In this document: piece after piece, positions 3,291 to 55,220 of the stretch
How positions within the stretch are numbered: position 1 is the first letter of the stretch
How the letters are laid out: every line of letters starts with the position of its first letter
Notes under the pieces: model-generated
The model's input: only the letters and a program-made list of their open reading frames with translations
What the model was told of the DNA's origin: nothing
Database searches by the model: none
Source: Candidatus Amesbacteria bacterium
GTDB lineage: Bacteria; Patescibacteriota; Microgenomatia; CAZETR01; Amesbacteraceae
DNA length: 64,000 bases
Reading direction: 5' to 3'
Assembly: GCA_027371535.1 (NCBI GenBank)
Contig: DAHXMV010000001.1
Coordinates: 172,825 to 236,824 of the forward strand
Made by a program: the position numbers and the translations under genes

Positions 3291-4916
3291 TTATTTCTGA
3301 TGAGTAAAAACGGGTTTGGTCTCTAACTGGTTTAAATATTCAGGTTTAAGTTCGTAAATGTCTGCAAAGGGATAGGATTCAACCTTGTTATAACGGGTAA
3401 AACCTTTTGTCCGGCTGACCAGTTTCCAGGTGAGATCGGAGTCGTCGTAGGTGCGCATAATAATCCATCTGGCCCAGCGGTCCGGAATATTTGTGGCAGA
3501 TTCCCAATATAAACCGGTACCCTCATGTATAAAGCGGGACATAGGCAGACCGGAAGAAAAAATTATGGCGTCATGGGAAGCCGCAGATATGAGAATAAAA
3601 CCCGGCTCGTTAGCGGCGTAAGTCTTTAACCAATTCGCCACCTGGGAGACATTTTTCTGACTGCTGCCAACCCGGGCATCATCAATGGTAACAGCGTCAC
3701 CGTTAATAAAAGCAAAAGCCAATACAAATAAAGTCAGACCTACCAAAATCAGACGGAATGATCCGGCTTTATCGATTAAAAAACCCGTAAAAACAGCAAT
3801 CGTGGGGACGAGCATCATGCCATAACGGACATTAAACCAGGTATTTCCGGACAAACCCTGAACGAAAAGAACCGAGTGGCCAAGATACAAAGCCAGAATA
3901 TTGAAAAATAAAGGCGATAAAAGGGCAATAGTGGAAAATCTGACGCCTGAAGAAATCCGGCGGTTGATCCAAAGCGTGACAGCCCCGATCAAACCTAAAA
4001 TCGCCGGAAATGTATAAGTGTTATATAAGAGGGCGTACAGATAAATTTTGGCGGATAAGTACCAATTGTTTTGCGTGAAAAGCACTCCGGCTTTGGCTAA
4101 CTGTTCCTGCTGGGTATGTGCAGAATAGGGTCCGAAAGCAAAATATAACCAGTCTTTAAAAATCAGTTGATTCCAAAACAACCAGATAAGAATTCCCAGG
4201 GCGCCAAGGGTCACAAACAGGAGGACGGAACCCTCGGCGACCTGATAACCCCTTTTTCGGAAACTATGTAAAAACACCAAACCGGTGGCAATTAACAGGA
4301 GAAACCAGCCGTCATAGCGGATGAGGGTGGAGGCCATAATAAAAAAGGCTGACTTGACAAGGTTTAGGACATTGGCATCGTCATGCCATAAAGTCAGATA
4401 GTAACAACCGGCGGTCATGGTGGCTAAAAGCAGCAGTTCGGTCATGGCAGTGGACTGTAAATAAAGCACGTTGAGATTGGCAGAGAAAATCAACACGCCC
4501 ACCAGACGCCCAAGAATTCCGACCTGCAGTTTCTCCAGATATTTGTAAATTAATATTCCGGTGGCAACGAAGGCGATCATTGACTGCAAGGCTCCGGCCA
4601 ATCCGGTATGCCACATAAAATCACTCCAAATAGTCGGTACCATCAAAAGGTGGGTCAGCGGCAGCCAAACGGAACCCAACTGGGCAATCCCGGGTTTTAA
4701 ACCTTCAACTACCCGCCGGCCGATATCCAGATGCGACCGGGCGTCGTTATAAGCCAAAGCCAGACCGTCATTTAAAAAATGCCAATAATAAAGAATGGAA
4801 ACCAGGGATAAACCCAGCATTAAAATTACCAACAGATTTTTACTCAGAAAATCCCGGAAGGTTCTTAACCTTCCGGCCGGGAAATTAAATTTGAGAGAAA
4901 AAGTTTCAGGTGTCAT
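3291..4916 (-). CDS. polytopic membrane glycosyltransferase, GT-C fold-like (PMT/ArnT/DUF2029-like)
   Basis: About 12 predicted TM helices. An early extracytoplasmic loop carries the acidic motif YNDARSHLDIGRR. The C-terminal part is soluble. Confidence 0.45.
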   Translation of the reverse strand: MTPETFSLKFNFPAGRLRTFRDFLSKNLLVILMLGLSLVSILYYWHFLNDGLALAYNDARSHLDIGRRVVEGLKPGIAQLGSVWLPLTHLLMVPTIWSDFMWHTGLAGALQSMIAFVATGILIYKYLEKLQVGILGRLVGVLIFSANLNVLYLQSTAMTELLLLATMTAGCYYLTLWHDDANVLNLVKSAFFIMASTLIRYDGWFLLLIATGLVFLHSFRKRGYQVAEGSVLLFVTLGALGILIWLFWNQLIFKDWLYFAFGPYSAHTQQEQLAKAGVLFTQNNWYLSAKIYLYALLYNTYTFPAILGLIGAVTLWINRRISSGVRFSTIALLSPLFFNILALYLGHSVLFVQGLSGNTWFNVRYGMMLVPTIAVFTGFLIDKAGSFRLILVGLTLFVLAFAFINGDAVTIDDARVGSSQKNVSQVANWLKTYAANEPGFILISAASHDAIIFSSGLPMSRFIHEGTGLYWESATNIPDRWARWIIMRTYDDSDLTWKLVSRTKGFTRYNKVESYPFADIYELKPEYLNQLETKPVFTHQK

Positions 4917-8088: not shown

Positions 8089-9208
8089 AATTTTTCTGTA
8101 CGGACGATAAGTAAACAGCATAACTATTTATGATCTGATTCCAGCTGAAATTTTTTGCAAATTTCCTGCCTTTTTGGGCTAAAACTTTCGACTGACGGGG
8201 GTTGTTTAATATATTTTGGATATGACGACTCAATGCGTGGACATCAAAACAGGCGGTTTTCAGACAACAATCAGCCGGCACCCATTTAAGGCCGTCGATA
8301 TCAAAAGTCACCAAAGGTTTTTGATAGGCCAAAACTTCCAAGGCAGCGAAGGAAAATGTTTCAAAACGGGATGGTACTACCACCAAATCAGCCGAAACAA
8401 ACAAAGCAAATTTTTCCCGCCCAGTTACTCTGCCAGGCAGGATTACCCTGTCAGAAAGACCCAGCCTGCCAATCATTAATTTCAGAGCACTGACTTCGGC
8501 AGCCGTACCTGAGCCGGCAATTACCAACCTACCTGAATATCCGGGCAACAGCAGTGAATACGCCCGAAGCAATAAATCCAAACCTTTCTGATTTATTTCA
8601 ATCCGACCGATAAATAAAATATAGTTACCGGAAACCGGCTTTTTAGGTAACACCGGGATATCTATACCGTTGGGAATTACTTGAATCTTGGATCCGGGGG
8701 TTTTGGAGTGTACTAACTGACGGATCTGATCACTAGTGACGTGAATATAAGAATAGGTTTTAAGGCCTAAATTTTCGGCCAGTTTAAACGGCAGATGGTA
8801 CTTGCGCTGCATATCTTCACCAGCCAACATATGGACGCTGCCGATAACCGGTTTATTGGTAAAAAGTGGCAGACAGGTAGTAGAAAACGGAGGGGTAAAA
8901 CTTTCCAACCAGATATCGAAGGGTAATCTGAAAATCAGGCTTATAAGTGACAACTGGTAGGCTAACTGACCCAGTTTAGGACCAAAATTACCGCTACCTA
9001 CATATCGATATTCAACCCCATCGATTCTTTCATTCAGACAGCCGGGATATTTACCGGCCATAACCAGCACCCGGAAACCCATTTTCTGCAAACCGGTGGC
9101 AATTTTGAGAACAGCAAAAGCCCCGCCTCCGGCATAGTACGGGTTTTTCGGGCTATCATAATTACTGATAACCAGGCGGGTTTGATGATCAGTCTGCGGG
9201 TGCATACC
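8072..9208 (-). CDS. glycosyltransferase family 4 (GT-B, group 1)
   Basis: The N-terminus contains a YYAGGG donor-binding motif. The C-terminal GT-B domain is similar to GT4 enzymes. The start is probably MHPQ. It overlaps the 3' end of the upstream giant gene by a few codons. Confidence 0.65.
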   Translation of the reverse strand, partial: GMHPQTDHQTRLVISNYDSPKNPYYAGGGAFAVLKIATGLQKMGFRVLVMAGKYPGCLNERIDGVEYRYVGSGNFGPKLGQLAYQLSLISLIFRLPFDIWLESFTPPFSTTCLPLFTNKPVIGSVHMLAGEDMQRKYHLPFKLAENLGLKTYSYIHVTSDQIRQLVHSKTPGSKIQVIPNGIDIPVLPKKPVSGNYILFIGRIEINQKGLDLLLRAYSLLLPGYSGRLVIAGSGTAAEVSALKLMIGRLGLSDRVILPGRVTGREKFALFVSADLVVVPSRFETFSFAALEVLAYQKPLVTFDIDGLKWVPADCCLKTACFDVHALSRHIQNILNNPRQSKVLAQKGRKFAKNFSWNQIINSYAVYLSSVQKNYGTSA

Positions 9209-43373: not shown

Positions 43374-45310
43374 AAGACCAAGGCAAAACCAATCCGATGC
43401 GGACTGCCCCGGGGCCAATGGGCCGGGGTTTCGGGGCTATGGGCAGACCGGTAGAAAAAGCCAAAGATTTCAGGGGGACATTAAAAAGACTTCTGGCGTA
43501 TTTTGCCCCCGAAAAAAACAGGCTGCTGGTTATTGTCACAGCTGCTGTTTTCGGAACTATTTTTAATATCGTCGGACCCAAAGTCCTGGGTCTGGCAACG
43601 ACCAAACTGTTTGATAACCTGATTGCCAGTTTTATCATCCAAGCCAGAAACGTCGCCATTAAGAAAGAATTGCTCGTGAATCCCTACCTGTCCATTCATG
43701 CGTCACCCATACCGGGAATTGAATTCGGTTATATAGGCAAAATCATGCTGATATTACTCGGGTTATACATCATCAGCGCCGTGTTTATTTTCATCCAACA
43801 ATATCTGATGGCCGGGGTAGCCCAAAGAACCATCTATAAACTCAGAAAAGAGGTGGATGAAAAACTGTCCAGGTTACCCCTCTCATATTTTGACGGCCGG
43901 ACTCACGGGGAGATTTTGAGCAGGGCGGTGAACGATATGGACAATATCAGCTCTACATTACAACAAAGTATCGCCCAACTGATCACGTCTATACTGACAG
44001 TCCTGGGGGTTTTGGTAATGATGCTGTCCATCAGCTGGCTGTTAACAATCATTGTCCTGTTAACCCTGCCCTTGTCAATGGTAATTGTGGTGGGAATAGC
44101 CAAACGCTCACAGGATTATTTCCGCAAACAACAGGGCAGCCTGGGGGAGCTAAACGGCCATGTGGAAGAGATGTATACCGGCCACAAGATTGTCAAAGCC
44201 TTCGGCCATGAAGAAAAAGCAATTTCGGAATTTGGGGTGTTAAATGATAAATTATATGACGCGGGCTGGCGGGCCCAGTTCGTATCGGGAATCATCATGC
44301 CACTGATGAGATTTGTCGGCAATATAGGCTATATCCTGGTAGCCATTGCCGGCGGAGTGATGGCCACCCAGGGGACTATTTCAATCGGTGATGTACAGGC
44401 TTTTATCCAATATTCAGCCCAGTTTACCCAACCGATTGCCCAGCTGGCCAATATTGCCAATGTCATCCAGTCAGCCATTGCCTCGTCAGAAAGGGTATTT
44501 GAATTATTAGACGAGCAGGAACAGGTTCCGGAAGCAGGACATCCGCTAACCATTACCAACCCCCGGGGGGCAGTGGAATTCAAGCACGTCAGATTTGGTT
44601 ACAGTCCCGATAAAATTTTACTGGAAGACATGAATATTGACGTCAAGCCCGGCCAAATGATAGCCATTGTGGGACCGACAGGTGCGGGGAAGACGACTCT
44701 CATCAATCTATTGATGCGTTTTTACGAAGTGAACGGGGGGCAGATTCTGGTAGACCGTGTGGATATTACCAAAATGAGGCGCGGGGATTTGAGGCGGCAT
44801 TTCGGAATGGTGTTGCAGGATACCTGGCTCTTTCACGGAACTTTAAAGGATAATATTGCCTACGGACGGGAAAATGCCACCGAAGACGAAATTGTAAAGG
44901 CTTCCACGGCCGCGTACGCCGATCATTTCATCAGGACCCTACCCGAAGGTTATAACCTGGTATTAAATGAAGAGGCCACGAATATTTCGCAGGGGCAAAA
45001 ACAACTGCTTACCATTGCCAGGGCCTTTTTAGCGGACCCGGAAATCCTGATTCTGGACGAAGCAACCAGCAGCGTGGATACCAGGACCGAGCAGCTGATC
45101 CAGTCGGCCATGGAAAAGCTGATGCACGGACGGACCAGTTTTGTGATTGCCCACAGGTTATCCACGATCAAAAATGCGGACCTGATACTGGTCATGAATC
45201 ACGGAACCATTATTGAAAGCGGTTCACATGATACGCTGCTTTCCAAAAAGGGTTTTTATGCAGATTTGTATAACAGCCAGTTTCAGCATGCCGAAGAAGT
45301 AACAGCTTAA
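43370..45310 (+). CDS. ABC exporter, fused permease/ATPase subunit (heterodimer partner 2)
   Basis: Six TM helices. GPTGAGKTT, ISQGQKQLLTIARAF, ILILDEATSSVD. Overlaps the partner by 4 nt. Confidence 0.8.
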   Translation: MKDQGKTNPMRTAPGPMGRGFGAMGRPVEKAKDFRGTLKRLLAYFAPEKNRLLVIVTAAVFGTIFNIVGPKVLGLATTKLFDNLIASFIIQARNVAIKKELLVNPYLSIHASPIPGIEFGYIGKIMLILLGLYIISAVFIFIQQYLMAGVAQRTIYKLRKEVDEKLSRLPLSYFDGRTHGEILSRAVNDMDNISSTLQQSIAQLITSILTVLGVLVMMLSISWLLTIIVLLTLPLSMVIVVGIAKRSQDYFRKQQGSLGELNGHVEEMYTGHKIVKAFGHEEKAISEFGVLNDKLYDAGWRAQFVSGIIMPLMRFVGNIGYILVAIAGGVMATQGTISIGDVQAFIQYSAQFTQPIAQLANIANVIQSAIASSERVFELLDEQEQVPEAGHPLTITNPRGAVEFKHVRFGYSPDKILLEDMNIDVKPGQMIAIVGPTGAGKTTLINLLMRFYEVNGGQILVDRVDITKMRRGDLRRHFGMVLQDTWLFHGTLKDNIAYGRENATEDEIVKASTAAYADHFIRTLPEGYNLVLNEEATNISQGQKQLLTIARAFLADPEILILDEATSSVDTRTEQLIQSAMEKLMHGRTSFVIAHRLSTIKNADLILVMNHGTIIESGSHDTLLSKKGFYADLYNSQFQHAEEVTA

Positions 45311-46362
45311 ACTTTCTCCAGCAGCCTCCAGAAATTTAAAACCCAGGCCCCCGGTGAATAATCACCGGATAATGAAGAATAAAAAACAAGTTCGGGAGTT
45401 TGGGTGGTAACATAAGCAGGGACCACCGGATCCGGCCTGGCATTGGGCCAATTACAATCCGGACAGGTTATTAATTGTTTATTTCGAATTTCGTTTTCCC
45501 GGATTTTGTTTTCAGGTTTCCAGCCGCACCTGGGGCAAATAATTTCACGACAGGAAGCATGCTCATGGGAGTCTCCCCCGTTTTGCCCCGAACTGCCTAA
45601 AAAGGCGCCGTTGGACGGACCACAGCCGGAACCAGATAAATCAATGCTACCGCCGATATTCATCATTATTTTTTCCGCTTGCAGCCCGGTAATGTAGGGG
45701 TTAATTTTATTTTTATTTGCCAATTCCAAGATTTGGGAAACCGGAGCCATGGCTTCTATTTTTTTACGGCATCGTTCTTTTATTTCACCGGATTCAACCT
45801 GATTCCAGATTTCGGCCGGTAGCGCAATATATAACCTGCCCGTAGAGTAAAGGTTAGTATTTTCGGAAAAAGTTGCAGACAAAGGTGTCATTTCGATATC
45901 GGTTGGGTTTTCCAGAAACGGAATACCGGGATAGTCCGACAATAACCTGAAACGGTTTAAAAGACCGACAACATCCTTAATACTTTCACGGTGACGGATA
46001 CCGTAAGCTTCAAAGGTTATAACACCGGAATCATTGGTGACCAAAAAAATATTTACCCGATTTTCGGGATAGGCATATCCCGGACTAACCCACACCACAA
46101 TCCGTTTTTGATTTTCGGGAGTTTCTTTTACCAACCTCTCGGTATCCAAAGCTGCCCAAGTAGAAGCAAAATATTTTTCCGTGGGGCTTAGTTCTGGAGG
46201 AAAATGATCATAGTACCATACATTATCAGGATCAATTGGTTTTTCTGTTATCAGGGCTTCGGTATGTAAAGAGGCGGCGTCTTCGGCGGCTTTCGAAAAA
46301 TCACCGGTATAAAAAAGGGTATAGAATGCGGGGCGGGTTTCGACTGACATAATTTCCTGCAC
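45307..46362 (-). CDS. hypothetical protein with C-terminal Cys4 zinc-ribbon (CPRCG...CPDCN)
   Basis: 351-aa ORF. No family recognised. Two CxxC pairs lie near the C-terminus. Confidence 0.4.
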   Translation of the reverse strand: MQEIMSVETRPAFYTLFYTGDFSKAAEDAASLHTEALITEKPIDPDNVWYYDHFPPELSPTEKYFASTWAALDTERLVKETPENQKRIVVWVSPGYAYPENRVNIFLVTNDSGVITFEAYGIRHRESIKDVVGLLNRFRLLSDYPGIPFLENPTDIEMTPLSATFSENTNLYSTGRLYIALPAEIWNQVESGEIKERCRKKIEAMAPVSQILELANKNKINPYITGLQAEKIMMNIGGSIDLSGSGCGPSNGAFLGSSGQNGGDSHEHASCREIICPRCGWKPENKIRENEIRNKQLITCPDCNWPNARPDPVVPAYVTTQTPELVFYSSLSGDYSPGAWVLNFWRLLEKV

Positions 46363-46545: not shown

Positions 46546-47562
46546 ATGTCAGGTAGGTACAATGGCTGCTACATGCGCGGTTTCAAAATACTTCCGGTGA
46601 TGTCGTTATCCCGTATATCCACTTTGTCCAGGGATGGCTTGAAGCGGTTGGAGTGGATTGATTGGTACTATACCCACGAGAAGAATGCTGAAGGCACTTG
46701 CAGACATTTCAGTCTGTCCAAATCAGTGTTTTACCGGTGGTTAAACCGGTTTGACAAGTACAACCTGGCTACGCTGGAGTTTGATACCCAAACCAGGAGG
46801 CCAGAACATCTGAGAAAGATGACTACTCCAAGAGAGGTTATCAGTTTGGTATGCCAGATTCGGAAAGACGATCCAGAAAAATCAAAGTATGAAATACAGG
46901 CTGAACTCAGAGAAATACATGGAGTAACTTTGGGTTACAACACCATCCAAAAGATTATCAACCGAGACCCCAGACTAGCCATTTTGAAGAAGAAAATCAA
47001 ACGTCACAAAAATCACAAGATTGACCGGATGCCAGCTGCATATGATCTCAAAGACCGGGATGTGGGGTCTTTGGTTCAGGTAGACACCAAGCACTATTAT
47101 GTCCTGGGAGAGAGGTATTACATATTTGCGGCAGTAGACTGTAAATCCAGATATGCCTATACCTACGCCTACACCAGAATCTCTTCCAGTTCTGCCCAGG
47201 ATTTTTTAACCAGAGTAAAAGCTTATTTTCCTTTTCCCATGTCAGCCATTAATACAGACAACGGATCAGAATATCTTTTGTATTTTCACAAATTAACTAA
47301 AGATTTAGGCATACCCCATTACTTTTCCCGGCCCCGAACCCCCACCATGAACTCCAGGGTGGAAAGACTAATTCAAACGCTGGAGTATGAATTTTTAAAC
47401 TATCAAACCATTAGTCCGGAGATTTCCCAGGTGAGAGAAATGTGTGAAAAATTTAATACAAAATACAATCAACAGAGGTATCACCGGGCTTTAAATTATC
47501 AAACACCACAGATGTATGTTAAAACCTATTTACAGAAAGGAGGTCAACCGTTCTCTATCTAG
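46546..47562 (+). mobile_element. IS481-family-like insertion sequence: single DDE transposase ORF (HTH + rve integrase core); element ends not determined
   Basis: HTH region SKSVFYRWLNRF. DDE triad context LVQVDTKHYY / FAAVDCKSRYAY / INTDNGSEY. C-terminal YNQQRYHRALNYQTP. Flanked by ~180 bp and ~375 bp of non-coding DNA. Terminal inverted repeats could not be confirmed by eye. Confidence 0.6.
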
Positions 47563-47939: not shown

Positions 47940-48599
47940 TTACCAGGGACGGATCCGGCCGGCAAACCAGAAATTGCCGGTTGGATGAGAACGGGTCACC
48001 AATTCATACAATTCTTTGGCGGGAAATTCGGGTTCTCTGGGAGCCTGCGGACCTCCCATGTCCGTTTTTACCCAACCCGGGTCAAAAGCCGATACTGTGA
48101 TGTTTTTAAGACGATCTGCCAGGGTTTTGAGATACATATTGAGGGCGGTCTTGCTGATCCTGTAAGCCGGACAAACTCCGTTATCAAATCGGGTCAGGGA
48201 AGACATCATTGAGGAAACGGCAACTATCTGGCCATCGGACTTAATCAGAGGCAATATTCCCTCCGTAAAAGCGATCGTTCCGATTAGATTTATTTCCAAA
48301 ACCCGGCGGAGTACAGAGATATCGATCCGGTTTTCATCCGGTTCAAAACTGGCACCGGCGCAATTTATTAAAACGTCAATTTAGGGATATTTTTTAGTAA
48401 TATTTTGTACAGCTGAAGAAATACTTTCGGGATCGCTTAAATCCGTTACAAAATGGACATAGTTTGGGTGTTTGAGGTTTCTGTTTTCAGATGTCGAGGC
48501 ACCCAAAACCAACCAACCTTCAGCCAGAAATTTTTTGGCGGCAGCTAAACCGATTCCCCGGCTGGAACCGGTAATAAGAACTTTATTTTCTGTGTTCAT
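47940..48599 (-). pseudogene. short-chain dehydrogenase/reductase (SDR) interrupted by an in-frame TAA at 48381-48383
   Basis: The N-terminal part has TGSSRGIGLAAAK (Rossmann). The same frame continues past the TAA as IDVLINCAGASFEPDE... and then into the catalytic part ...SSLTRFDNGVCPAYRISKTALNMY (YxxxK). The ORF track shows this as two pieces. Confidence 0.6.
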
Positions 48600-49002
48600 T
48601 TGGCGTACTGCAATTGGAATAAGTTTCCTGATTGTTTTCCATTATAAAAGCCGTGTCACCTTTGCTCCAGAAGATAAAGGATTCGTCGCCATTGGCATAA
48701 CGAATACCGCTGCCTGAAAGCGTCTGGGGCAGTGATAACTGCCTGCCATCACTAAGAACCAAATTCACTTTTCCGGAAGGAACAGGCGGTTGACCGACCT
48801 GGGGAGTGATTTCCGGACCCTGATAGAAGACAGCCGTAACTTCTTTTTTACCATCACACTGATAAGTGACTTGGGAAATTAGTTTATAATCGCTAACCGG
48901 AACGGAATTTATTTTAACTGTATGTATTTTAAGGGAAAAAAACAGATAGCCGGCGGATATGAATACTAAAACCAGAATATACAAAAAAAATACTTTATTC
49001 AT
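48583..49002 (-). CDS. MliC-family (membrane-bound lysozyme inhibitor of C-type lysozyme)-like secreted protein
   Basis: Has a signal peptide. YQCDGKKEVTAVFY ... SGSGIRYANGDESFIFWSKGDTAFI matches the MliC conserved core. Confidence 0.5.
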   Translation of the reverse strand: MNKVFFLYILVLVFISAGYLFFSLKIHTVKINSVPVSDYKLISQVTYQCDGKKEVTAVFYQGPEITPQVGQPPVPSGKVNLVLSDGRQLSLPQTLSGSGIRYANGDESFIFWSKGDTAFIMENNQETYSNCSTPNEHRK

Positions 49003-49050
49003 TTACTTTTAAGACAAATTATACTTATAGATTGGTATAATACGCAAACC

Positions 49051-49434
49051 ATGTCTCCCCTACCTTATGAAACTTTTATTTTCAGCCAGCGATGCAGTGA
49101 ACCCGCTATCGAAGAATTTCTGAATCTTAACCCATCCCGGGACGGGGTATATACCACTGTGGTAGGGAATCAGGCTAACAGGGAAATACTGTTACAGGAA
49201 TTGGGTTTACCTTTAGATTTGAAAAATTGCCCGCCCATAGAGCATGGTTATAATAATAATGGAAGAGAATTCAGGGTTTTTTCCACAAACAGGCCAAACG
49301 TATATATCAGCCAGGAAAGAAAAAGTAAAAGATCGGGAAGAGAACCATGGAGTTATTTTCAGGTAAAGATGTTGGGGGTACATATCAACGAGGCATATCG
49401 GAAATCGATACAAAATTTTGATTTACACCGGTAA
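49051..49434 (+). CDS. hypothetical protein
   Basis: 127-aa ORF with no family. Lies at the edge of the low-GC island. Confidence 0.3.
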   Translation: MSPLPYETFIFSQRCSEPAIEEFLNLNPSRDGVYTTVVGNQANREILLQELGLPLDLKNCPPIEHGYNNNGREFRVFSTNRPNVYISQERKSKRSGREPWSYFQVKMLGVHINEAYRKSIQNFDLHR

Positions 49435-49727
49435 TCATTACGTGTTATAAAAAGGCAGGTGGTTCCCAGGAATATAACTTCGCCGTGGCCGATACGGAAA
49501 ATACTGCTAGATATCTGATTTATTTAACCGGTGAATTAATATGATAATGGACGAAAACCAAAGTATTTTTAGAACCATACCTGATTTCTTCCTCCCCTAC
49601 CAACAACGGAATTTCTTTAATTTCTTTGATTAATTTGTCGGAATCCTCATATCAGGTTCCGGAAATTCCGGTATAAACGAAGGATTTGCAAATTTGTCTT
49701 TTCTTATAACTAACCTTCTTTATAATT

Positions 49728-50318
49728 CTAAAAAGGTTCATATATCGAGGTATCCGGGTACACTGTACAAGTTTGGGCGCCTATATGAAAAGTTAAACTA
49801 TATCCTCTCTCATATTTGTCACCCGGTATTGTATCTGTTAACAACTCTGCATAGTATGCGTGAGTATCCTTAGGGTTATACGCCCGATAGTCAGTATTAA
49901 GATTCCCCCGGACCTTAATAGCCGTTAACTCATCGGGTGAAGGTCTTATTGTTGAAGTATCGTCACTAATGTTTAATGTTGACAACCGAACATGTTGGAG
50001 TTTGGTATATTTGCGGGCATTCTGAGTTATATATGAAATTAGGCATCCTTTTGCCGATGATAAACCAATCTCTTTATAACGAGACCGTAAATTGTTATCT
50101 TTCCATTCATTCGCAGACCCTCCATAGGCACAACCTAAACTATCACCACGACCACCGCAGTAAGACTGCCTGTAGCAAGTTTTATCAACTAAACAGCTAC
50201 CAGTCCTCAGAGAAAATTGGTCAATTAAAAAGTATCGGCTCACGGGAATTGCCAAACTTAATCCAATAACAATAGCCAGAGAACCAATTACCCAAAAACC
50301 ACGCTTAAGTACCTTCAC
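49728..50318 (-). CDS. hypothetical membrane-anchored extracytoplasmic Cys-containing protein (island cassette 1)
   Basis: N-terminal TM (FWVIGSLAIVIGLSLAI), 8 Cys, AT-rich codon usage. Preceded on its upstream side by direct repeat R1. Confidence 0.45.
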   Translation of the reverse strand: MKVLKRGFWVIGSLAIVIGLSLAIPVSRYFLIDQFSLRTGSCLVDKTCYRQSYCGGRGDSLGCAYGGSANEWKDNNLRSRYKEIGLSSAKGCLISYITQNARKYTKLQHVRLSTLNISDDTSTIRPSPDELTAIKVRGNLNTDYRAYNPKDTHAYYAELLTDTIPGDKYERGYSLTFHIGAQTCTVYPDTSIYEPF

Positions 50319-50398
50319 AAGAATAGCTTACCAGAATTTAGAAGAATTATTTGATGAGTTTGTTCTTAAAATGGAGGGTATGGATAAAGGTATTATAA

Positions 50399-50460
50399 CT
50401 ATATATGACCTTTAATTAGGATAGTGACATTTTTTGAAGTGTCATCAAAACAGGGTACCA
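50399..50460. repeat. direct repeat R1, copy of secA 3' end + flank (minus-strand reads stop-H-F-K-K-C-H-Y-P-N-stop)
   Basis: ctatatatgacctttaattaggatagtgacattttttgaagtgtca... aligns with R2 and with the genuine secA terminus (R3). Confidence 0.7.
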
Positions 50461-50482
50461 CAAAAAAGTTTGTTAAATACTA

Positions 50483-51535
50483 TTAAAAACCGGTTATTTG
50501 TCGGCTTATTTGTTTGCTGTAACAATCCCATTCTTTCTTCGGGTCGTTTAGGTTATTTTTCAAACAATCATTTGTTGTTGAATCCGGATACGATGACCTA
50601 TAACATTTATTGGCCTCTAAATAAAACTGCTGAAGGATAATAGTCATATCGCTATTTTCAATAGTACATGAGCCATCCAGTTTACCTGTAGGCTTACAAG
50701 TCTTATCCTCGGCTTTTCGTTTATTACTGTTTGCAACATCAAGGCAATTTCTTAAGAGATAATCATACGGAGTTGGAGTGGGGACCAGTGGAGTCAGCAC
50801 GAAAGTTTGTGCTATTTGTTGAAATATATTAACCATGTCTTCCTGAGTGGGGGTGGCACTGGGGGTGCCATAGATGGCTTTGTTATAAGCATTAACCATA
50901 TCTCCCCAATTGCTATCTTTATAAAAATCCATTTCCTGCATTGGATTTTGGTAATTTAGTTCCAGTCGGACATAGTAATATAGGTTGTTTCCGAGTATTT
51001 CATAAACCAGATACTGGGTTTTGGTAGACACTTCCCGGATCTGCATGTATTTTGCCTTGATTCCATCTATGAGCACCTCTTTTTCGCTTAATGCCTGAAA
51101 TGTTTTCCCGTCAATTTGGCTTTGGTTCGTATGAAATACTTTTATCGGGCTTTCAATACTCGAATAACCATAGGCATAAGCACAACTGCCCTCCCCAGGG
51201 AACTCAATATGGGGGGTCATCTCTGGGGGATAGGATATTTTATAACCATCGTATTTACATTCGTTCGTCTTCCAACCGACTGGGATTTGAACTTTTTTTA
51301 AATTTGGTCTTACTTGTGAAACTGAAGTTCGGCTAGTCATTTTCGTTCCAAGTAACATATAAAAACCAACGACAACGCACATAATTATTAATGCCGATAA
51401 TATAGTTATTAAAAATTTAAACTTATGAGTGGGTTTTTGATCTGTATTGGTCAAGATGTTCACTTCAGGCAACTGAGACGAAGACATTTGTGTTTGTTGA
51501 GAAGATTCGTCTGCTGACTGGAGAAAAGGTTCCAT
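50483..51535 (-). CDS. hypothetical membrane-anchored extracytoplasmic protein, Cys- and Tyr-rich (island cassette 2)
   Basis: TM at residues ~40-62. PTPTPY linker. 12 Cys. Low GC. Confidence 0.45.
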   Translation of the reverse strand: MEPFLQSADESSQQTQMSSSQLPEVNILTNTDQKPTHKFKFLITILSALIIMCVVVGFYMLLGTKMTSRTSVSQVRPNLKKVQIPVGWKTNECKYDGYKISYPPEMTPHIEFPGEGSCAYAYGYSSIESPIKVFHTNQSQIDGKTFQALSEKEVLIDGIKAKYMQIREVSTKTQYLVYEILGNNLYYYVRLELNYQNPMQEMDFYKDSNWGDMVNAYNKAIYGTPSATPTQEDMVNIFQQIAQTFVLTPLVPTPTPYDYLLRNCLDVANSNKRKAEDKTCKPTGKLDGSCTIENSDMTIILQQFYLEANKCYRSSYPDSTTNDCLKNNLNDPKKEWDCYSKQISRQITGF

Positions 51536-51701
51536 GTGTTTTAAGTATTACAAATGCAACTTTTAAAAGCAATTTACTACCATGTGGTAACCTAAAGTTG
51601 TCAGTAACCAGATCACTGAGGCTGGGAATCAGAAATTAGATTTGATCCGGTTTGTTCTTAACAACTAGATTTTGTTAGAAGTGTATTTTATTCCTATGTA
51701 T

Positions 51702-51758
51702 CGGCCTAATTAGGATAGTGGCATTTTTTGAAGTGTCAGCAATAATGGGTACCGTACA
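51702..51758. repeat. direct repeat R2, second copy of secA 3'-end-derived sequence (minus-strand reads stop-H-F-K-K-C-H-Y-P-N-stop)
   Basis: cctaattaggatagtggcattttttgaagtgtcagcaataatgggtacc is about 85% identical to R1 over ~50 bp. Confidence 0.7.
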
Positions 51759-51766
51759 GATTACGG

Positions 51767-52300
51767 TCACTTACAATCGGAATCGTCCAAATTTCCATAA
51801 TGAAGCGGGCCGGATTCTACAATTTTCAAATCAGAGCAGATGGTTGTCCTTTCAGTCTTAAAAAAGTTTAAATCCGACGCGTAACCATCGCGAGAAATCT
51901 TACAATTTGTATTTCTGTCTAATTTAACCCGATAAATTTCAGTTTGAGCATATGACTCCCATGTGGAATATTCCGAACGTAAAAAGGCCCCCTGACATCT
52001 GACTGATGCCTGAAGCAAACAGTTTACCTTAGCTTGGGTTGAATTTAAATCATCATACCGGGGGATGTTATTGTCACCTACTTGGGAAGGAAAACTAGCA
52101 CCGAATTTAATCGTTCCACAATTAAGCATGTTTAAATTTTTTAAATCATAATATTTATCTAATATCATTGGAAAAATAATGAAACCTGCAAATTTATATA
52201 AAAAATAAAAGACAACCGATATAACAAAAAACAGTATCACGATGAAAATGTATAACTTCCTCGGATTCTGGGCTTTTCTATCCTGTGCAAGTTTTTCCAT
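51767..52300 (-). CDS. hypothetical membrane-anchored extracytoplasmic Cys-containing protein (island cassette 3)
   Basis: TM at residues ~17-40. 8 Cys. Low GC. Confidence 0.45.
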   Translation of the reverse strand: MEKLAQDRKAQNPRKLYIFIVILFFVISVVFYFLYKFAGFIIFPMILDKYYDLKNLNMLNCGTIKFGASFPSQVGDNNIPRYDDLNSTQAKVNCLLQASVRCQGAFLRSEYSTWESYAQTEIYRVKLDRNTNCKISRDGYASDLNFFKTERTTICSDLKIVESGPLHYGNLDDSDCK

Positions 52301-52390
52301 TTTGACTACATCGTATCATTCTATGACTTATTCGACAATTTATATACAAAATAAACTAGAGTTATGTAATCACCAATATGTATATAGCGC

Positions 52391-52428
52391 CTATATATAG
52401 ACCTTAATTTGGATAGTGGCACTTTTTG
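52391..52428. repeat. R3: genuine secA 3' terminus (..KKCHYPN-stop) and 13 bp downstream, prototype of R1/R2
   Basis: ctatatatagaccttaatttggatagtggcactttttg overlaps secA codons for KKCHYPN plus the TAA (52404-52406). Confidence 0.7.
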
Positions 52429-55220
52429 TACTTCTTGCCTGAGCCGCACCAGCAGGGGTCGTTGCGGCCGAGGTTTTTGTGAGAATTCTGGGCGCCGACA
52501 TTCTCTAGCGTTTGGAATGCGGTCATAAATTCGGGAGAAACACTTTTCGGACCTTTGCCCAGAATGGTCTTCACTTTTTCGGCAGCCCCGGCATAAGCAG
52601 ATCCTGCCTGACGTCCGGCAACATCAAGATTGTCCGTAGGAGCAGTCGGAGAAGACATGTCAAATTCGGGTTTAAGCTCGATGATCTGCGGGGTCCGGAT
52701 TTGTTCCGGCTGGCCGATCTGAATTCTGAACAGGCGTTTGGAAAATTCCGTTTCAATCTGAGCTACCAAACGTTCAAACATGGCAAAGGCTTCGGCTTTG
52801 TATTCCACCAGGGGGTCACGCTGGCCATATCCCCGGAGGCCAATGCCCGAGCGGAGATCATCCACGGCATCCAGATGATCTACCCAGAGGTGATCGATAG
52901 AGGACAGGTAAGAGAACTTAATGATCTGTTTCCAATTTTCTTCACCCACCTGGTTTTTGCGGCTATCGAAAGCTTCGGCAATAATTTTATCGGTCATATT
53001 ACCGATTTCTTCAGCAGTACCCAGTTGTTTAAACTGATCGGAAAGGGCTGACTGAGACAAATCATCAAAAGGAATAATATCAACCAGGGCGGTAGTGATA
53101 GGCAAAACCTCCGATTCCACAATCCCCCTGGGGGCATAAATGGCAATGACGTTTTTGATGGTAGTCCGAAGTTTTTCCAAAATTTCCCCGTCGGTGATTT
53201 CGTAATTCAATACCCGATTTCTGAGACCATAAACAATTTCCCGCTGTTTATTCATGACGTCATCGTATTCGACGACACTTTTTCTGGCATCAAAATTAAA
53301 ACCCTCAACTTTCACCTGGGCCTGTTCGATTGCCCGGCTGACCATACCATGCTCGATCGGCTCGTCTTCGGGAATCTTTAAAAAATTCATAATTTTGGCA
53401 ACCTGCTCCCCGCCGAATATTCTCATGATATCGTCGTCCAGGGAGAGATAAAAACGGGTGGAGCCCGGATCTCCCTGGCGGCCAGAACGGCCCCGGAGCT
53501 GGTTATCTATTCTTCTGGATTCATGGCGCTCGGTACCGATGACAAACAGACCCCCCGAAGCCACTACTTCATCATGGACAGCCTGCCATTTGGCCAGAGC
53601 TTTCTTATATTCGGCGTCGGTAAGTTTATCCTCGCCCAGTACAAATTTCGGATTGGGCGGCGGGGTACCCCCTAATATAATATCCACACCGCGGCCGGCA
53701 ATATTGGTGGCAATTGTGACCGCGCCTTTGCGGCCGGCTTCGGAGATAATAACAGCCTCCCTTTCATGATTTTTGGCATTCAGGATCTGGTGGGGAATTT
53801 TTTTATGGGTCAATAAATCGGAGACAATTTCGTTCTTTTCAATCGAAGTGGTCCCGACCAGGACCGGCTGGCCGGAGTGGTAAATTTCAGCGATCTGTGA
53901 CGCCAGTGCCGAATATTTGGCCCGGGCGGTTTTGTAAACCACATCCGGCATATCAGACCTGACCATGGGTTTGTGGGTGGGGATGACGATGACTTCAAGT
54001 TTGTAAATTTTCTGTAACTCTTCGGCTTCGGTGGCCGCAGTCCCGGTCATACCGGCTAATTTTTCATACATTCTAAAATAGTTCTGGAAGGAGATAGTGG
54101 CCATGGTTTTGGATTCTTGCTGGATTTTTACATTTTCCTTGGCTTCGACGGCCTGATGAATGCCCTCCGACCAGCGGCGTCCGGGCATTAAACGGCCGGT
54201 AAACTCATCAACGATTACCACCTCACCGTCTCTGACTATATAGTCCTTGTCCCTGATAAACAGGGCCCGGGCTTTTAAGGCATTTTCCAGATGATGGATC
54301 ATCTCAAAATCCTTTTCGTAAAGATTATCCACATTCATAATTTTTTCCACTTTTTTTAAACCGTATTCGGTCAGATTGGCAGTGCGGTGTTTTTCATCAA
54401 TGGTATAGTCGGTATCGGGGGAAAGACGGTCCACCAGTTTGGCGAAATCGTAATATTTCTGGGTGGGTTCGGTGTCTGGCATGGAAATTATCAGAGGTGT
54501 CCTAGCCTCATCGATTAAAATAGAATCAACTTCGTCGACGATGGCGAAATGATGCCCGCGCTGAACTTTATCTTTCAAATCCCCGACCATGTTATCTCTT
54601 AAATAATCAAACCCGAATTCGTTATTGGTGCCGTAGGTAATATCGGCGGCATAGGCTTCCTGACGGGTGCAAGGCTTTAAGTGGGCCAGACGGTCATCTC
54701 CGTGACTGGGATCAAAATATGCCGGATCGTAGAGAAAAGACTGGTCATGAACAATGATACCGACAGATAATCCCAAAAGATGAAAAGTAGCGCCATTCCA
54801 GCCGCCATCACGCCGGGCCAGATAGTCATTAACGGTGACCAGATGTGCACCCTTTCCGGTCAGCGCGTTCAAATAAAGCGCGGGAACAGCAGATAAAGTT
54901 TTACCTTCGCCGGTTTTTTGTTCGGCCACCTTGCCTTCATGAAAGGCGGTGGCAGCCATTAATTGAACGTCAAAAGGCCGAAGGCCAATCCCCTTCATAG
55001 AAGCCTCGCGCACCAGGGCAAAGGCCTCGGGAAGCAAAGCATCCAAAGTTTCCCCCCCGGCAAAACGGGATTTAAATTCGGCAGTCTTGGCGGCAAAATC
55101 CTTGGGACTTTTAAGGTTGGTAAAATCCGGACCCAGCAGATTGATACCGTCGACTTTGACTTTTAACTTGTCAACTTCCCGCTGATTGAAATCCAGAAAT
55201 TTGGAAAAGATTTTGAGCAT
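52404..55220 (-). CDS. secA: preprotein translocase ATPase SecA
   Basis: 938 aa with DEAD-like motor motifs and the C-terminal zinc finger CWCGSGKKYKKCH. Confidence 0.9.
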   Translation of the reverse strand: MLKIFSKFLDFNQREVDKLKVKVDGINLLGPDFTNLKSPKDFAAKTAEFKSRFAGGETLDALLPEAFALVREASMKGIGLRPFDVQLMAATAFHEGKVAEQKTGEGKTLSAVPALYLNALTGKGAHLVTVNDYLARRDGGWNGATFHLLGLSVGIIVHDQSFLYDPAYFDPSHGDDRLAHLKPCTRQEAYAADITYGTNNEFGFDYLRDNMVGDLKDKVQRGHHFAIVDEVDSILIDEARTPLIISMPDTEPTQKYYDFAKLVDRLSPDTDYTIDEKHRTANLTEYGLKKVEKIMNVDNLYEKDFEMIHHLENALKARALFIRDKDYIVRDGEVVIVDEFTGRLMPGRRWSEGIHQAVEAKENVKIQQESKTMATISFQNYFRMYEKLAGMTGTAATEAEELQKIYKLEVIVIPTHKPMVRSDMPDVVYKTARAKYSALASQIAEIYHSGQPVLVGTTSIEKNEIVSDLLTHKKIPHQILNAKNHEREAVIISEAGRKGAVTIATNIAGRGVDIILGGTPPPNPKFVLGEDKLTDAEYKKALAKWQAVHDEVVASGGLFVIGTERHESRRIDNQLRGRSGRQGDPGSTRFYLSLDDDIMRIFGGEQVAKIMNFLKIPEDEPIEHGMVSRAIEQAQVKVEGFNFDARKSVVEYDDVMNKQREIVYGLRNRVLNYEITDGEILEKLRTTIKNVIAIYAPRGIVESEVLPITTALVDIIPFDDLSQSALSDQFKQLGTAEEIGNMTDKIIAEAFDSRKNQVGEENWKQIIKFSYLSSIDHLWVDHLDAVDDLRSGIGLRGYGQRDPLVEYKAEAFAMFERLVAQIETEFSKRLFRIQIGQPEQIRTPQIIELKPEFDMSSPTAPTDNLDVAGRQAGSAYAGAAEKVKTILGKGPKSVSPEFMTAFQTLENVGAQNSHKNLGRNDPCWCGSGKKYKKCHYPN

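Follow-up and report, generated by a model that had tools for sequence, protein, structure and literature searches.

Islands of the tyrosine-integrase type occupy the 3' ends of tRNA and protein-coding genes. In Streptococcus thermophilus, integrase-less cis-mobilizable elements (CIMEs) lie beside the integrative and conjugative elements (ICEs) ICESt1 and ICESt3 at the 3' end of fda. The composite islands formed by staphylococcal cassette chromosome (SCC), SCCmec and pseudo-SCC elements are found at the 3' end of rlmH/orfX (PMC6243372). We analyzed a stretch of 64,000 nucleotides (nt) from a Candidatus Amesbacteria bacterium (contig DAHXMV010000001.1, positions 172,825 to 236,824), referred to in its full length as the window, in which the 3' end of the secA gene is repeated downstream of that gene. 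Judged by sequence comparison, the secA 3' end looks like an attB-like attachment site for a family of small cassettes that lack a recombinase gene. It is probably a site of repeated Campbell-type, site-specific insertion of small circular cassettes by a recombinase supplied in trans. Coordinates are window positions unless another locus is named. The coding strand of secA is the minus strand, on which the repeat, secA and the cassettes are read.

The last eight codons of secA, which read K-K-C-H-Y-P-N-stop, form a 24-nt core (AAAAARTGYCACTATCCWAATTAR) that is present in three direct-orientation copies in the window, at 52404-52427 (the true secA end), 51706-51729 and 50412-50435. Allowing up to three mismatches, we found exactly three matches in 64 kb and none in 100 dinucleotide shuffles, and a profile search of the window with arm and core together returned no further copy. 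A preliminary description of this DNA had reported three direct copies of a repeat of about 55 bp. Three direct copies are indeed present, but the part common to all of them is about 38 nt, comprising the core and some 13-14 nt past the stop codon (AGGTCnATAyATAG; GGTCTATATATAGG at the secA end). An additional 28-nt arm upstream of the core (GGTACCCnnTnTTGnTGACACTTC; the left arm, or P) is shared by copies 1 and 2 only, at 50436-50464 and 51730-51758. The third copy had been taken for the authentic 3' end of secA, and the core at 52404-52427 does end the SecA open reading frame (ORF). Copies 1 and 2 translate as stop-H-F-KKCHYPN-stop on the coding strand, again as described. The window secA is intact, with a full-length ORF of 938 amino acids (aa) that includes the SEC-C motif. 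An independent assembly (ENA k141 contig, locus L203) has the identical gene order; the two assemblies are concordant, and the observation of the repeats therefore stands. The target gene, repeat copies and cassette genes are arranged as follows.

52404..55220, minus strand: secA, the target gene, 938 aa, C-terminus CWCGSGKKYKKCHYPN-stop; Pfam matches SecA_DEAD, P-loop_SecA, SecA_SW, SecA_PP_bind and SEC-C
52390..52427, minus strand: copy 3, attL-like; last eight secA codons including the stop (52404-52427) plus about 14 nt, GGTCTATATATAGG
51767..52300, minus strand: cassette gene c3, 177 aa; one N-terminal transmembrane (TM) helix, 6 Cys, no Pfam match; GC content at third codon positions (GC3) 0.34
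51692..51758, minus strand: copy 2, internal attP-like junction; arm GGTACCCATTATTGCTGACACTTC at 51730-51758, core at 51706-51729; nhmmer E = 7.8e-16; post-stop sequence palindrome-like, GGCCGATACATAGG
51578..51661, minus strand: right-arm (P') backbone of cassette c2; TTAAGAACAAA at 51651-51661, palindrome TACCACATGGTA at 51578-51589
50483..51535, minus strand: cassette gene c2, 350 aa; one TM helix at about residues 41-63, 9 Cys, no Pfam match
50399..50464, minus strand: copy 1, internal junction; arm at 50436-50464, core at 50412-50435, post-stop sequence AGGTCATATATAG; nhmmer E = 2e-17; backbone motif TTAAGAACAAA follows at 50359-50369
49728..50318, minus strand: cassette gene c1, 196 aa; N-terminal TM helix, 6 Cys

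Downstream of every window copy, at a distance of 95-170 nt, comes a gene whose product is membrane-anchored and rich in Cys. The three minus-strand proteins each have an N-terminal helix and 6-9 Cys, and they are mutually unrelated, as had been noted from the translations (best BLASTP E = 0.56; their sizes differ). c3 has only four distant homologues among 1.84 billion representatives, all with a hydrophobic N-terminal segment and with the six Cys invariant. A single partial homologue was found for c2 (51% identity), and the homologues of c2 and c3 sit at unrelated loci. c1 has no homologue among 5.8 billion clustered proteins and is an ORFan. AlphaFold2 yielded no usable model for c1 or c2 (pLDDT 41 and 42). 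The cassette proteins may be secreted effectors or surface proteins of an epibiont or parasite, as the preliminary description put forward.

The spacing of the copies ahead of similar kinds of genes invites another account, in which the secA end and a downstream gene were duplicated in tandem in situ and then diverged fast, or in which the copies are merely a regulatory repeat before secreted-protein genes. A promoter-like match inside the copies fits this account as well. Read as one sequence, the left arm and the displaced core give a sigma-70-like CTGACA/ATGACA-N16-TATCCT directed toward the next gene, with 9/12 matches (51712-51739 and 50418-50445, minus strand). Promoter-like sites in the region overall are not enriched over shuffles, so that this match is a lead at most. 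Against such a local origin, the three proteins are dissimilar and of unequal size, and the repeat is found nowhere else in the window; comparisons with other genomes, given below, bear on it further.

The window repeats do not appear to be structured. The preliminary description had pointed to an inverted repeat, TGACA-N-TGTCA, within them; it is perfect in copy 1 alone, is not significant and forms no stable hairpin. Folding of both strands of all three window repeats was no better than that of shuffles (z = +0.30 to +1.14). No RYYYAAC/GTTRRRY box pair is visible in the window repeat sequences, and a search of Rfam matched no known RNA family.

We scanned JGI metagenome contigs with a degenerate form of the core (AAAAARTGYCAYTAYCCWAAYTAR), and at least 120 contigs matched. 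Each locus was oriented on secA, giving a counted set of 105 loci with a secA end, 104 from the metagenome matches listed and one from the window; the counts in this paragraph hold among these listed matches. Extra core-like copies (up to five mismatches) are present in 27 of the 105 loci. There are 36 such copies, all of them downstream of secA and all in direct orientation. No inverted copy was seen in about 370 kb downstream plus about 400 kb upstream of secA. Two copies upstream of an assigned secA end both proved to be mis-assigned array members. The largest arrays hold five copies (L106) and four copies (L111), and the cassette contents at this site differ in about one quarter of related loci. 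A generic repeat scattered through the genome, which would have undermined the proposal, is not what we observed: there are three copies in 64 kb, and elsewhere the copies are downstream of secA and direct. Some pattern matches were chance occurrences inside unrelated ORFs (L143/L192, L118).

Comparison of related loci, which had been proposed as a check, revealed both empty sites and sites with different cassettes. The nearest species-representative genomes are those of Candidatus Gottesmanbacteria and Microgenomates (SecA identity 52% in the C-terminal 398 aa, and about 60% when the full protein is compared). In several Gottesmanbacteria and Microgenomates representatives, secA ends in a single copy of KKCHYPN-stop. 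In locus L119, whose SecA is 74% identical to that of the window, the secA stop is followed by 8 nt and then by an intact gene for a short-chain dehydrogenase/reductase (SDR). The window has a split SDR gene, 67-73% identical at the amino acid level to the SDRs of L119 (67-71%) and L106, and in L106 the SDR gene is 5 kb downstream of secA. In the window, 3.8 kb of low-GC DNA (c3, c2, c1, orf127 and a gene for an MliC-like protein) separates secA from the SDR gene. The adjacency of secA and the SDR gene in L119 thus identifies the 3.8 kb as an insertion relative to the ancestral order. The island had been described as low in GC, and its composition agrees: windowed GC is 0.31-0.40 over about 48.8-52.4 kb versus 0.45-0.51 in the flanks, and GC3 is 0.33-0.39 in the island genes versus 0.50-0.52 in secA, the SDR gene and the ABC transporter.

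Two more pairs of loci show the same relationship. L172 has no space after secA, whose stop overlaps the start of a gene for a predicted NAD(P)H-hydrate dehydratase (read from the sequence, no family search). In L188, whose secA 3' end is 88% identical to that of L172, the order is secA-O-[452-aa TM protein]-P-O-125 nt-predicted hydrate dehydratase gene, where O denotes the last eight secA codons. The downstream DNA of L142 and L132 is 90% identical, and L132 has an additional 1.29 kb right after the stop. In all these comparisons (L119/window, L172/L188 and L142/L132) the edge of the insert falls exactly at the repeat. Relatives carrying the same three genes without the repeats, which would have spoken against insertion at this site, are not what we found.

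The copies retain the character of coding sequence. Since the scan pattern admits synonymous variants only, the test of synonymy was restricted to loci retrieved through their own secA end, and further copies were sought in them with a codon-blind mismatch threshold. Four copies (L130 +1767, L141 +825, L140 +104 and L149 +2473) differ by 3-6 nt from the secA end of their own locus, and 20/20 of these differences are synonymous; the remaining copies in the tested loci are partly decayed. The three within-core substitutions among the window copies (AAG/AAA, CCA/CCT and TGC/TGT) are likewise all third-position synonymous, and in L003 the secA end matches window copy 2 at every core position. Local duplication with subsequent neutral drift could not produce exclusively synonymous differences. 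Such a pattern is expected if every copy was at some time the functional end of secA, whether in the present lineage or in an earlier host.

At two loci the insert has replaced the end of the protein. In L135 and L117 the secA tails read KKCH-LSSGLA or KKCH-LGSDSA, and a P arm with KKCHYPN-stop is located 5.2 kb and 2.1 kb downstream of secA, respectively (in L135, secA ends at 3445 and the displaced copy spans 8658-8681). The inserts at these two loci supplied a new tail from the His codon on, which places the exchange in, or left of, the KKCH codons.

These coding features bear on the idea of target-site duplication, in which a transposase or a casposase-like enzyme would make staggered cuts around the 24-40-nt secA terminus and gap repair would duplicate it. 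Direct target repeats do flank the inserts, and the element ends P and P' are conserved but unlike each other. Tandem re-insertion at a regenerated target is known for casposons and CRISPR arrays, which gives this idea a precedent. Duplicates made in situ, however, begin identical and then drift randomly, in conflict with the 20 synonymous differences in four copies. The replaced tails of L135 and L117 need an exchange within O, and the length of the secA homology differs between copies. No Cas1 or transposase was seen within the annotated arrays, and P' does not repeat P in inverted form. Neither identical-then-neutral duplicates nor terminal inverted repeats nor a transposase/Cas1, the marks of transposons and casposons, were thus found, and we consider target-site duplication very unlikely.

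Beyond the core, the cassettes share a backbone. The left arm P (tGTGGTACCCTATTTAGCTGACACTTC, about 28 nt) is conserved in about 18 distinct genomes whose SecA proteins are 55-75% identical to that of the window. On the other side of the core, the right arm P' extends for up to about 135 nt and contains the motifs GGCTATATATAGCC, TTAAGAACAAAC and TACCAYATGGTA in that order. The P' common to window copy 2, L130, L141 and L195 consists of GGCTATAyATAGG, TTAAGAACAAAC, CCAGCCTCAATGATCTAGTT and the palindrome TACCAYATGGTA, again in that order; in the window, TTAAGAACAAAC lies at 51651-51661 and 50359-50369 and the palindrome at 51578-51589. TTAAGAACAAA and the palindrome TACCACATGGTA are found at constant offsets behind the cores in L130, L141, L195, L135 and L097. 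The palindrome TACCAYATGGTA has 10 occurrences in 767 kb, six of which are 113-135 nt past a core. By analogy, the conserved P-O-P' of about 190 nt is the size of a complex attP, and GGTACC-type motifs in both arms are candidate arm-type binding sites. A reading of the P arm as diverged secA coding sequence was tried and rejected, with 8/27 positions agreeing in a by-eye comparison, which is the chance level.

The backbone also connects arrays in different genomes. The P' of window copy 2 is nearer to the P' of L130, L141 and L195 than to those of the other window copies, which argues against in situ duplication. The first cassette of L130 (+44 to +896), which encodes a 249-aa TM protein, and the second cassette of L195 (+1520 to +2372) have a nucleotide identity of 89.8% over 853 nt, whereas the last 1.8 kb of secA is only 69.9% identical between the two loci. 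This one clear case already suggests that cassettes move between lineages. In L195 a deletion at a TTAG microhomology has removed the core from the junction before the shared cassette, and a profile search found arm-only remnants in L149 and L127. Old junctions therefore decay, which would explain why the distal repeat of the window is missing. Considering the synonymous changes, the kinship of the copy 2 backbone with other genomes and the empty sites in relatives, in situ duplication or a merely regulatory repeat is largely refuted and scarcely credible.

We propose the following model for cassette insertion. A cassette would consist of O, the left arm P, the right arm P' and usually one cargo gene. 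A circular P-O-P'-cargo molecule would recombine with the end of secA on the chromosome, at a point in the KKCH codons or immediately to their left. The O of the cassette would then become the working secA terminus, and the former terminus would be moved downstream, now behind P. Repeated insertion would produce the order secA-O-P'[c3]P-O-P'[c2]P-O-P'[c1...], in which old junctions would decay with time. We infer that the intermediate is circular and that the newest cassette is the one nearest secA. Cassettes may be expressed through read-through from secA or from the promoter-like TGACA-N16-TATCCT formed by P and O. The site-specific recombinase would be encoded elsewhere in the genome, and our guess is a tyrosine integrase using arm-type sites, which would fit the long conserved arms with repeated GGTACC-type motifs. 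Tandem insertion at the secA 3' end with regeneration of the terminus each time was the central proposal of the preliminary description, and the empty sites, variable contents, synonymous divergence, replaced tails and shared cassette all support it.

Several observations weigh against this model. A Pfam scan covered 40 window ORFs, namely those around the island and most other non-overlapping ORFs of at least 110 aa, with a few of the largest left out. It detected no recombinase apart from an IS481-type DDE transposase; the island ORFs themselves contain no integrase, as had been stated. About 15 arrays were annotated with Pfam or by inspecting their ORFs and yielded no recombinase, and a crude motif screen of 774 ORFs, which carries low weight, returned no tyrosine or serine recombinase. 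We saw no circular form and no phage or plasmid attP, with 0 matches in IMG/VR to the core or to arm plus core. Clean repeat borders are present only for cassettes c3 and c2, and the distal block (c1, orf127 and MliC) has no detectable terminal repeat, including by profile search. The homology to secA mostly begins at the KK codons, and in L191, L095, L184, L170 and L189 it is 3-9 codons longer (11-17 codons). Finally, several lineages contain gene-less units of 44-63 nt that the simple cassette model does not predict. The IS481-type transposase was considered as the agent and rejected: no homologue was found at any other array locus, and its chemistry does not make such repeats. It is probably unrelated to the array.

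The lack of a recombinase in the annotated arrays and scanned window ORFs, together with the varying left boundaries of the secA homology, could also point to insertion by homology or microhomology with no dedicated enzyme. Here circles or fragments with a chance stretch of secA 3' sequence would be integrated by a RecA-type or illegitimate single crossover, and the arms would be promoter or terminator modules. The sigma-70-like sequence formed by P and O and the microhomology deletion of the core in L195 are in line with this possibility. A 24-nt match, however, does not exceed the usual lower limit for efficient homologous recombination. The boundaries are confined to the last 8-17 secA codons in about 45 copies, where a homology-driven process should scatter them along secA. 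The conserved arms and their fixed-offset palindrome look like a dedicated site, and the promoter-like matches do not exceed those in shuffles. We regard enzyme-independent insertion as unlikely.

A host-encoded enzyme of the Xer type would likewise account for the failure to find an element-encoded recombinase. Under this explanation, which resembles the integrative mobile elements exploiting Xer recombination (IMEX), host XerCD would insert cassettes at a dif-like terminus site adjoining secA. Bulk GC and AT skew do shift near 50 kb, dropping to about zero right of the island with the cumulative GC skew maximum near 50 kb, and the L091 island encodes a stand-alone FtsK-gamma protein. Third-codon GC and AT skews of same-strand genes, however, are equal left and right of the island (p = 0.6 and 0.5). 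The bulk shift therefore reflects amino acid composition and does not indicate a replication terminus. Gene orientation is not convergent on the site, and the core is unlike the bacterial dif consensus when the two are compared by eye. With neither a 28-bp dif-like site at a terminus nor a GC3 or AT3 skew switch in evidence, Xer-mediated insertion appears highly improbable.

The gene-less units have a structure of their own. They stand directly after secA in L111 (minus strand, 8537-8664), L140 (3280-3407), L123 (1702-1873), L109, L096, L106, L098, L163 and L165. Each consists of a KKCHYPN-stop core, the complement of the 5' half of that core and a GCGAMCTTCGKTC mini-hairpin. Core and complement co-vary as pairs (AAACGTTG..CAACGTTT and AAAAAGTGC..GCACTTTTT), and the unit types are identical in L111 and L140 but differ in order. 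A second module, GTCC..GAGC..CGAAGGAGGAC, which is Shine-Dalgarno (SD)-like, precedes some cores. At some loci an SD-like GAAGGAGGAC raised the possibility of a small ORF starting from an ATG or GTG within the core; no such ORF is conserved, and we rejected it.

Paired complements of this kind are relevant to a strict integron mechanism, in which folded single-stranded attC-like sites would be used by an integron-type integrase with the secA end as attI. In the subclade of L111, L123 and L140, the cores are paired with a co-varying post-stop complement, with four cases of at least 8 nt versus 0.8 expected from shuffled pairing. The cassettes are also mostly single-gene, co-oriented and 0.7-1.5 kb long, include toxin-antitoxin pairs and ORFans, and each has a site-like repeat. 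On the other side, the window repeats fold no better than shuffles on either strand and show no RYYYAAC/GTTRRRY boxes, no integrase adjoins secA in the window or in the annotated array loci, and the repeats are conserved in sequence and not in structure alone. A strict integron mechanism is therefore quite unlikely in our estimation.

The cargo across arrays consists mainly of single genes for ORFan membrane-anchored Cys-rich proteins, toxin-antitoxins and copper resistance. Units are 0.7-5 kb long, mostly with one gene each, and single-TM ORFans are numerous. L091 carries an FtsK-gamma protein, a GT2, a GH26, a cytochrome b5 domain and an MNT/HepT toxin-antitoxin pair. L106 carries Fic, methyltransferase and glyoxalase genes, and L096 a ribonucleotide reductase and a CYTH protein. 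The cargo of L149 includes DUF5671 and a likely VapBC-type toxin-antitoxin pair (from ORF translations only), and L117 has a likely GNAT-type acetyltransferase and peptidase genes (also from translations only). The L135 insert was read from translations, with no family search, as a copper-resistance block of a CsoR-like repressor, a DUF305-like protein, a P-type ATPase and an HMA-domain protein. The cargo of L101 includes an HNH-repeat protein. In L091 (2235-2543, minus) and L101 (2563-3168, minus), an HNH-type ORF on the strand opposite secA adjoins its stop or runs over it; the L101 ORF has a Pfam HNH_repeat match, and that of L091 is HNH-like by eye with no Pfam match. The span 2763-3065 of L091 belongs to the same observation, as does the stand-alone FtsK-gamma protein of the L091 island.

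Other features of the window lie at the far edge of the insertion and beyond it.

49051-49434, plus strand: orf127, distal portion of the inserted low-GC block
48583-49002, minus strand: MliC-like lipoprotein gene; Pfam MliC, E = 3.9e-12; GC3 of 0.39 reported for the distal block
47940..48599, minus strand: SDR gene, split in ORFs of 72 aa and 119 aa, with a stop within the translation; far edge of the insertion
46546..47562, plus strand: IS481-type DDE transposase; Pfam rve, rve_3 and HTH_32

The MliC-like gene and the nearby IS481 transposase had both been recognized from the letters, and the Pfam matches agree with those assignments. A decayed fourth repeat copy at the MliC/SDR junction (48595-48618) was considered and rejected: only 14/24 positions match, a level reached by 0.9% of window positions, and the profile search was empty there. 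The split SDR gene is a pseudogene or contains a frameshift, and its L119 orthologue is intact; its breakage may be a consequence of the island separating it from secA. The short-read assemblies L001 and L203 both end inside or beside the IS481 transposase gene, and because two independent assemblies stop there, this genome probably has more than one copy of the element. A 351-aa ORF (45307-46362, minus strand) with weak, sub-threshold zinc-ribbon and Cys-rich matches separates the IS481 element from the ABC transporter genes. On its other side, secA is flanked upstream by methyltransferase-like, hypothetical and ABC transporter genes, with the cassettes downstream.

We found no description of a secA 3'-end attachment site, or of cassette arrays in the candidate phyla radiation (CPR), in the papers searched. 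The locus looks like a previously undescribed site-specific gene-capture site that is widespread in its clade. CPR genomes are tiny and their gene acquisition is little understood, and the secA terminus now represents a concrete, recurrent hotspot. The P-O-P' backbone can be searched for in metagenomes, allowing the mobile gene pool to be catalogued, the recombinase to be hunted and movement between lineages to be tested. The secA-end repeats also break short-read assemblies exactly at this locus. If the enzyme is new, or acts in trans on a site that also encodes a zinc-finger tail, it would merit attention in the study of mobile elements and also as a tool for site-specific integration.

It is possible, and we suggest it tentatively, that CPR/Microgenomates bacteria have an integron-like platform of their own. 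Single-gene cassettes that carry a mimic of the secA coding tail would dock at the terminus of secA, an essential and well-expressed gene. A trans-acting or host recombinase would insert, excise and shuffle these cassettes, with secA read-through expressing the newest one. Such a platform would mean that cassette arrays evolved a second time, independently, and would give epibionts a major exchange route for surface and secreted proteins, toxin-antitoxins and metal resistance despite their reduced genomes.

We compared the secA arrays with the described systems introduced above. As in ICE and CIME accretion, the element brings a surrogate 3' end for its target, attL/attR direct repeats result, and tandem arrays include integrase-less members. 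Direct repeats of the target terminus flank the insert and the gene stays intact, as in other 3'-end islands. Unlike ICE and CIME accretion, where an integrase-bearing element is usual at the site in some strains, neither a tyrosine nor a serine recombinase was seen on an element in the roughly 15 annotated secA arrays, and the units are far smaller.

The secA arrays share with integron arrays, including sedentary chromosomal integrons and clusters of attC sites lacking integron-integrases (CALINs), small, mostly single-gene, co-oriented cassettes with many ORFans and toxin-antitoxin pairs. Each cassette has one recombination site, and there is a single fixed insertion point by a gene able to supply transcription. 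Unlike integrons, the secA site has no IntI gene beside it, and the insertion point is inside a coding sequence. The secA repeats are sequence-conserved, double-strand-type mimics of a gene terminus and not structure-conserved attC hairpins; neither an adjacent intI nor attC hairpins with R''/R' boxes were found.

SCC elements and the secA cassettes both use an attachment site that reaches into the final codons of a conserved housekeeping gene, and the gene is kept intact. In both systems direct repeats containing the gene terminus bound each element, elements accumulate in tandem, and there are members without recombinase genes (pseudo-SCC) and metal resistance among the cargo (PMC6243372). 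SCC elements, in contrast, are 3-60 kb long, and their autonomous members encode the CcrAB/CcrC serine recombinases. The target here is secA, the hosts are CPR Microgenomates, and the secA repeats are longer (24-40 nt) and retain coding capacity. No ccr-like gene was seen in the annotated arrays or in the crude motif screen of 774 ORFs, while the site itself lies in terminal codons, as in SCC. By analogy, the nearest architecture is that of SCC and pseudo-SCC islands and of integrase-less accretion at gene 3' ends, and in size, content and array logic the secA cassettes resemble integrons.

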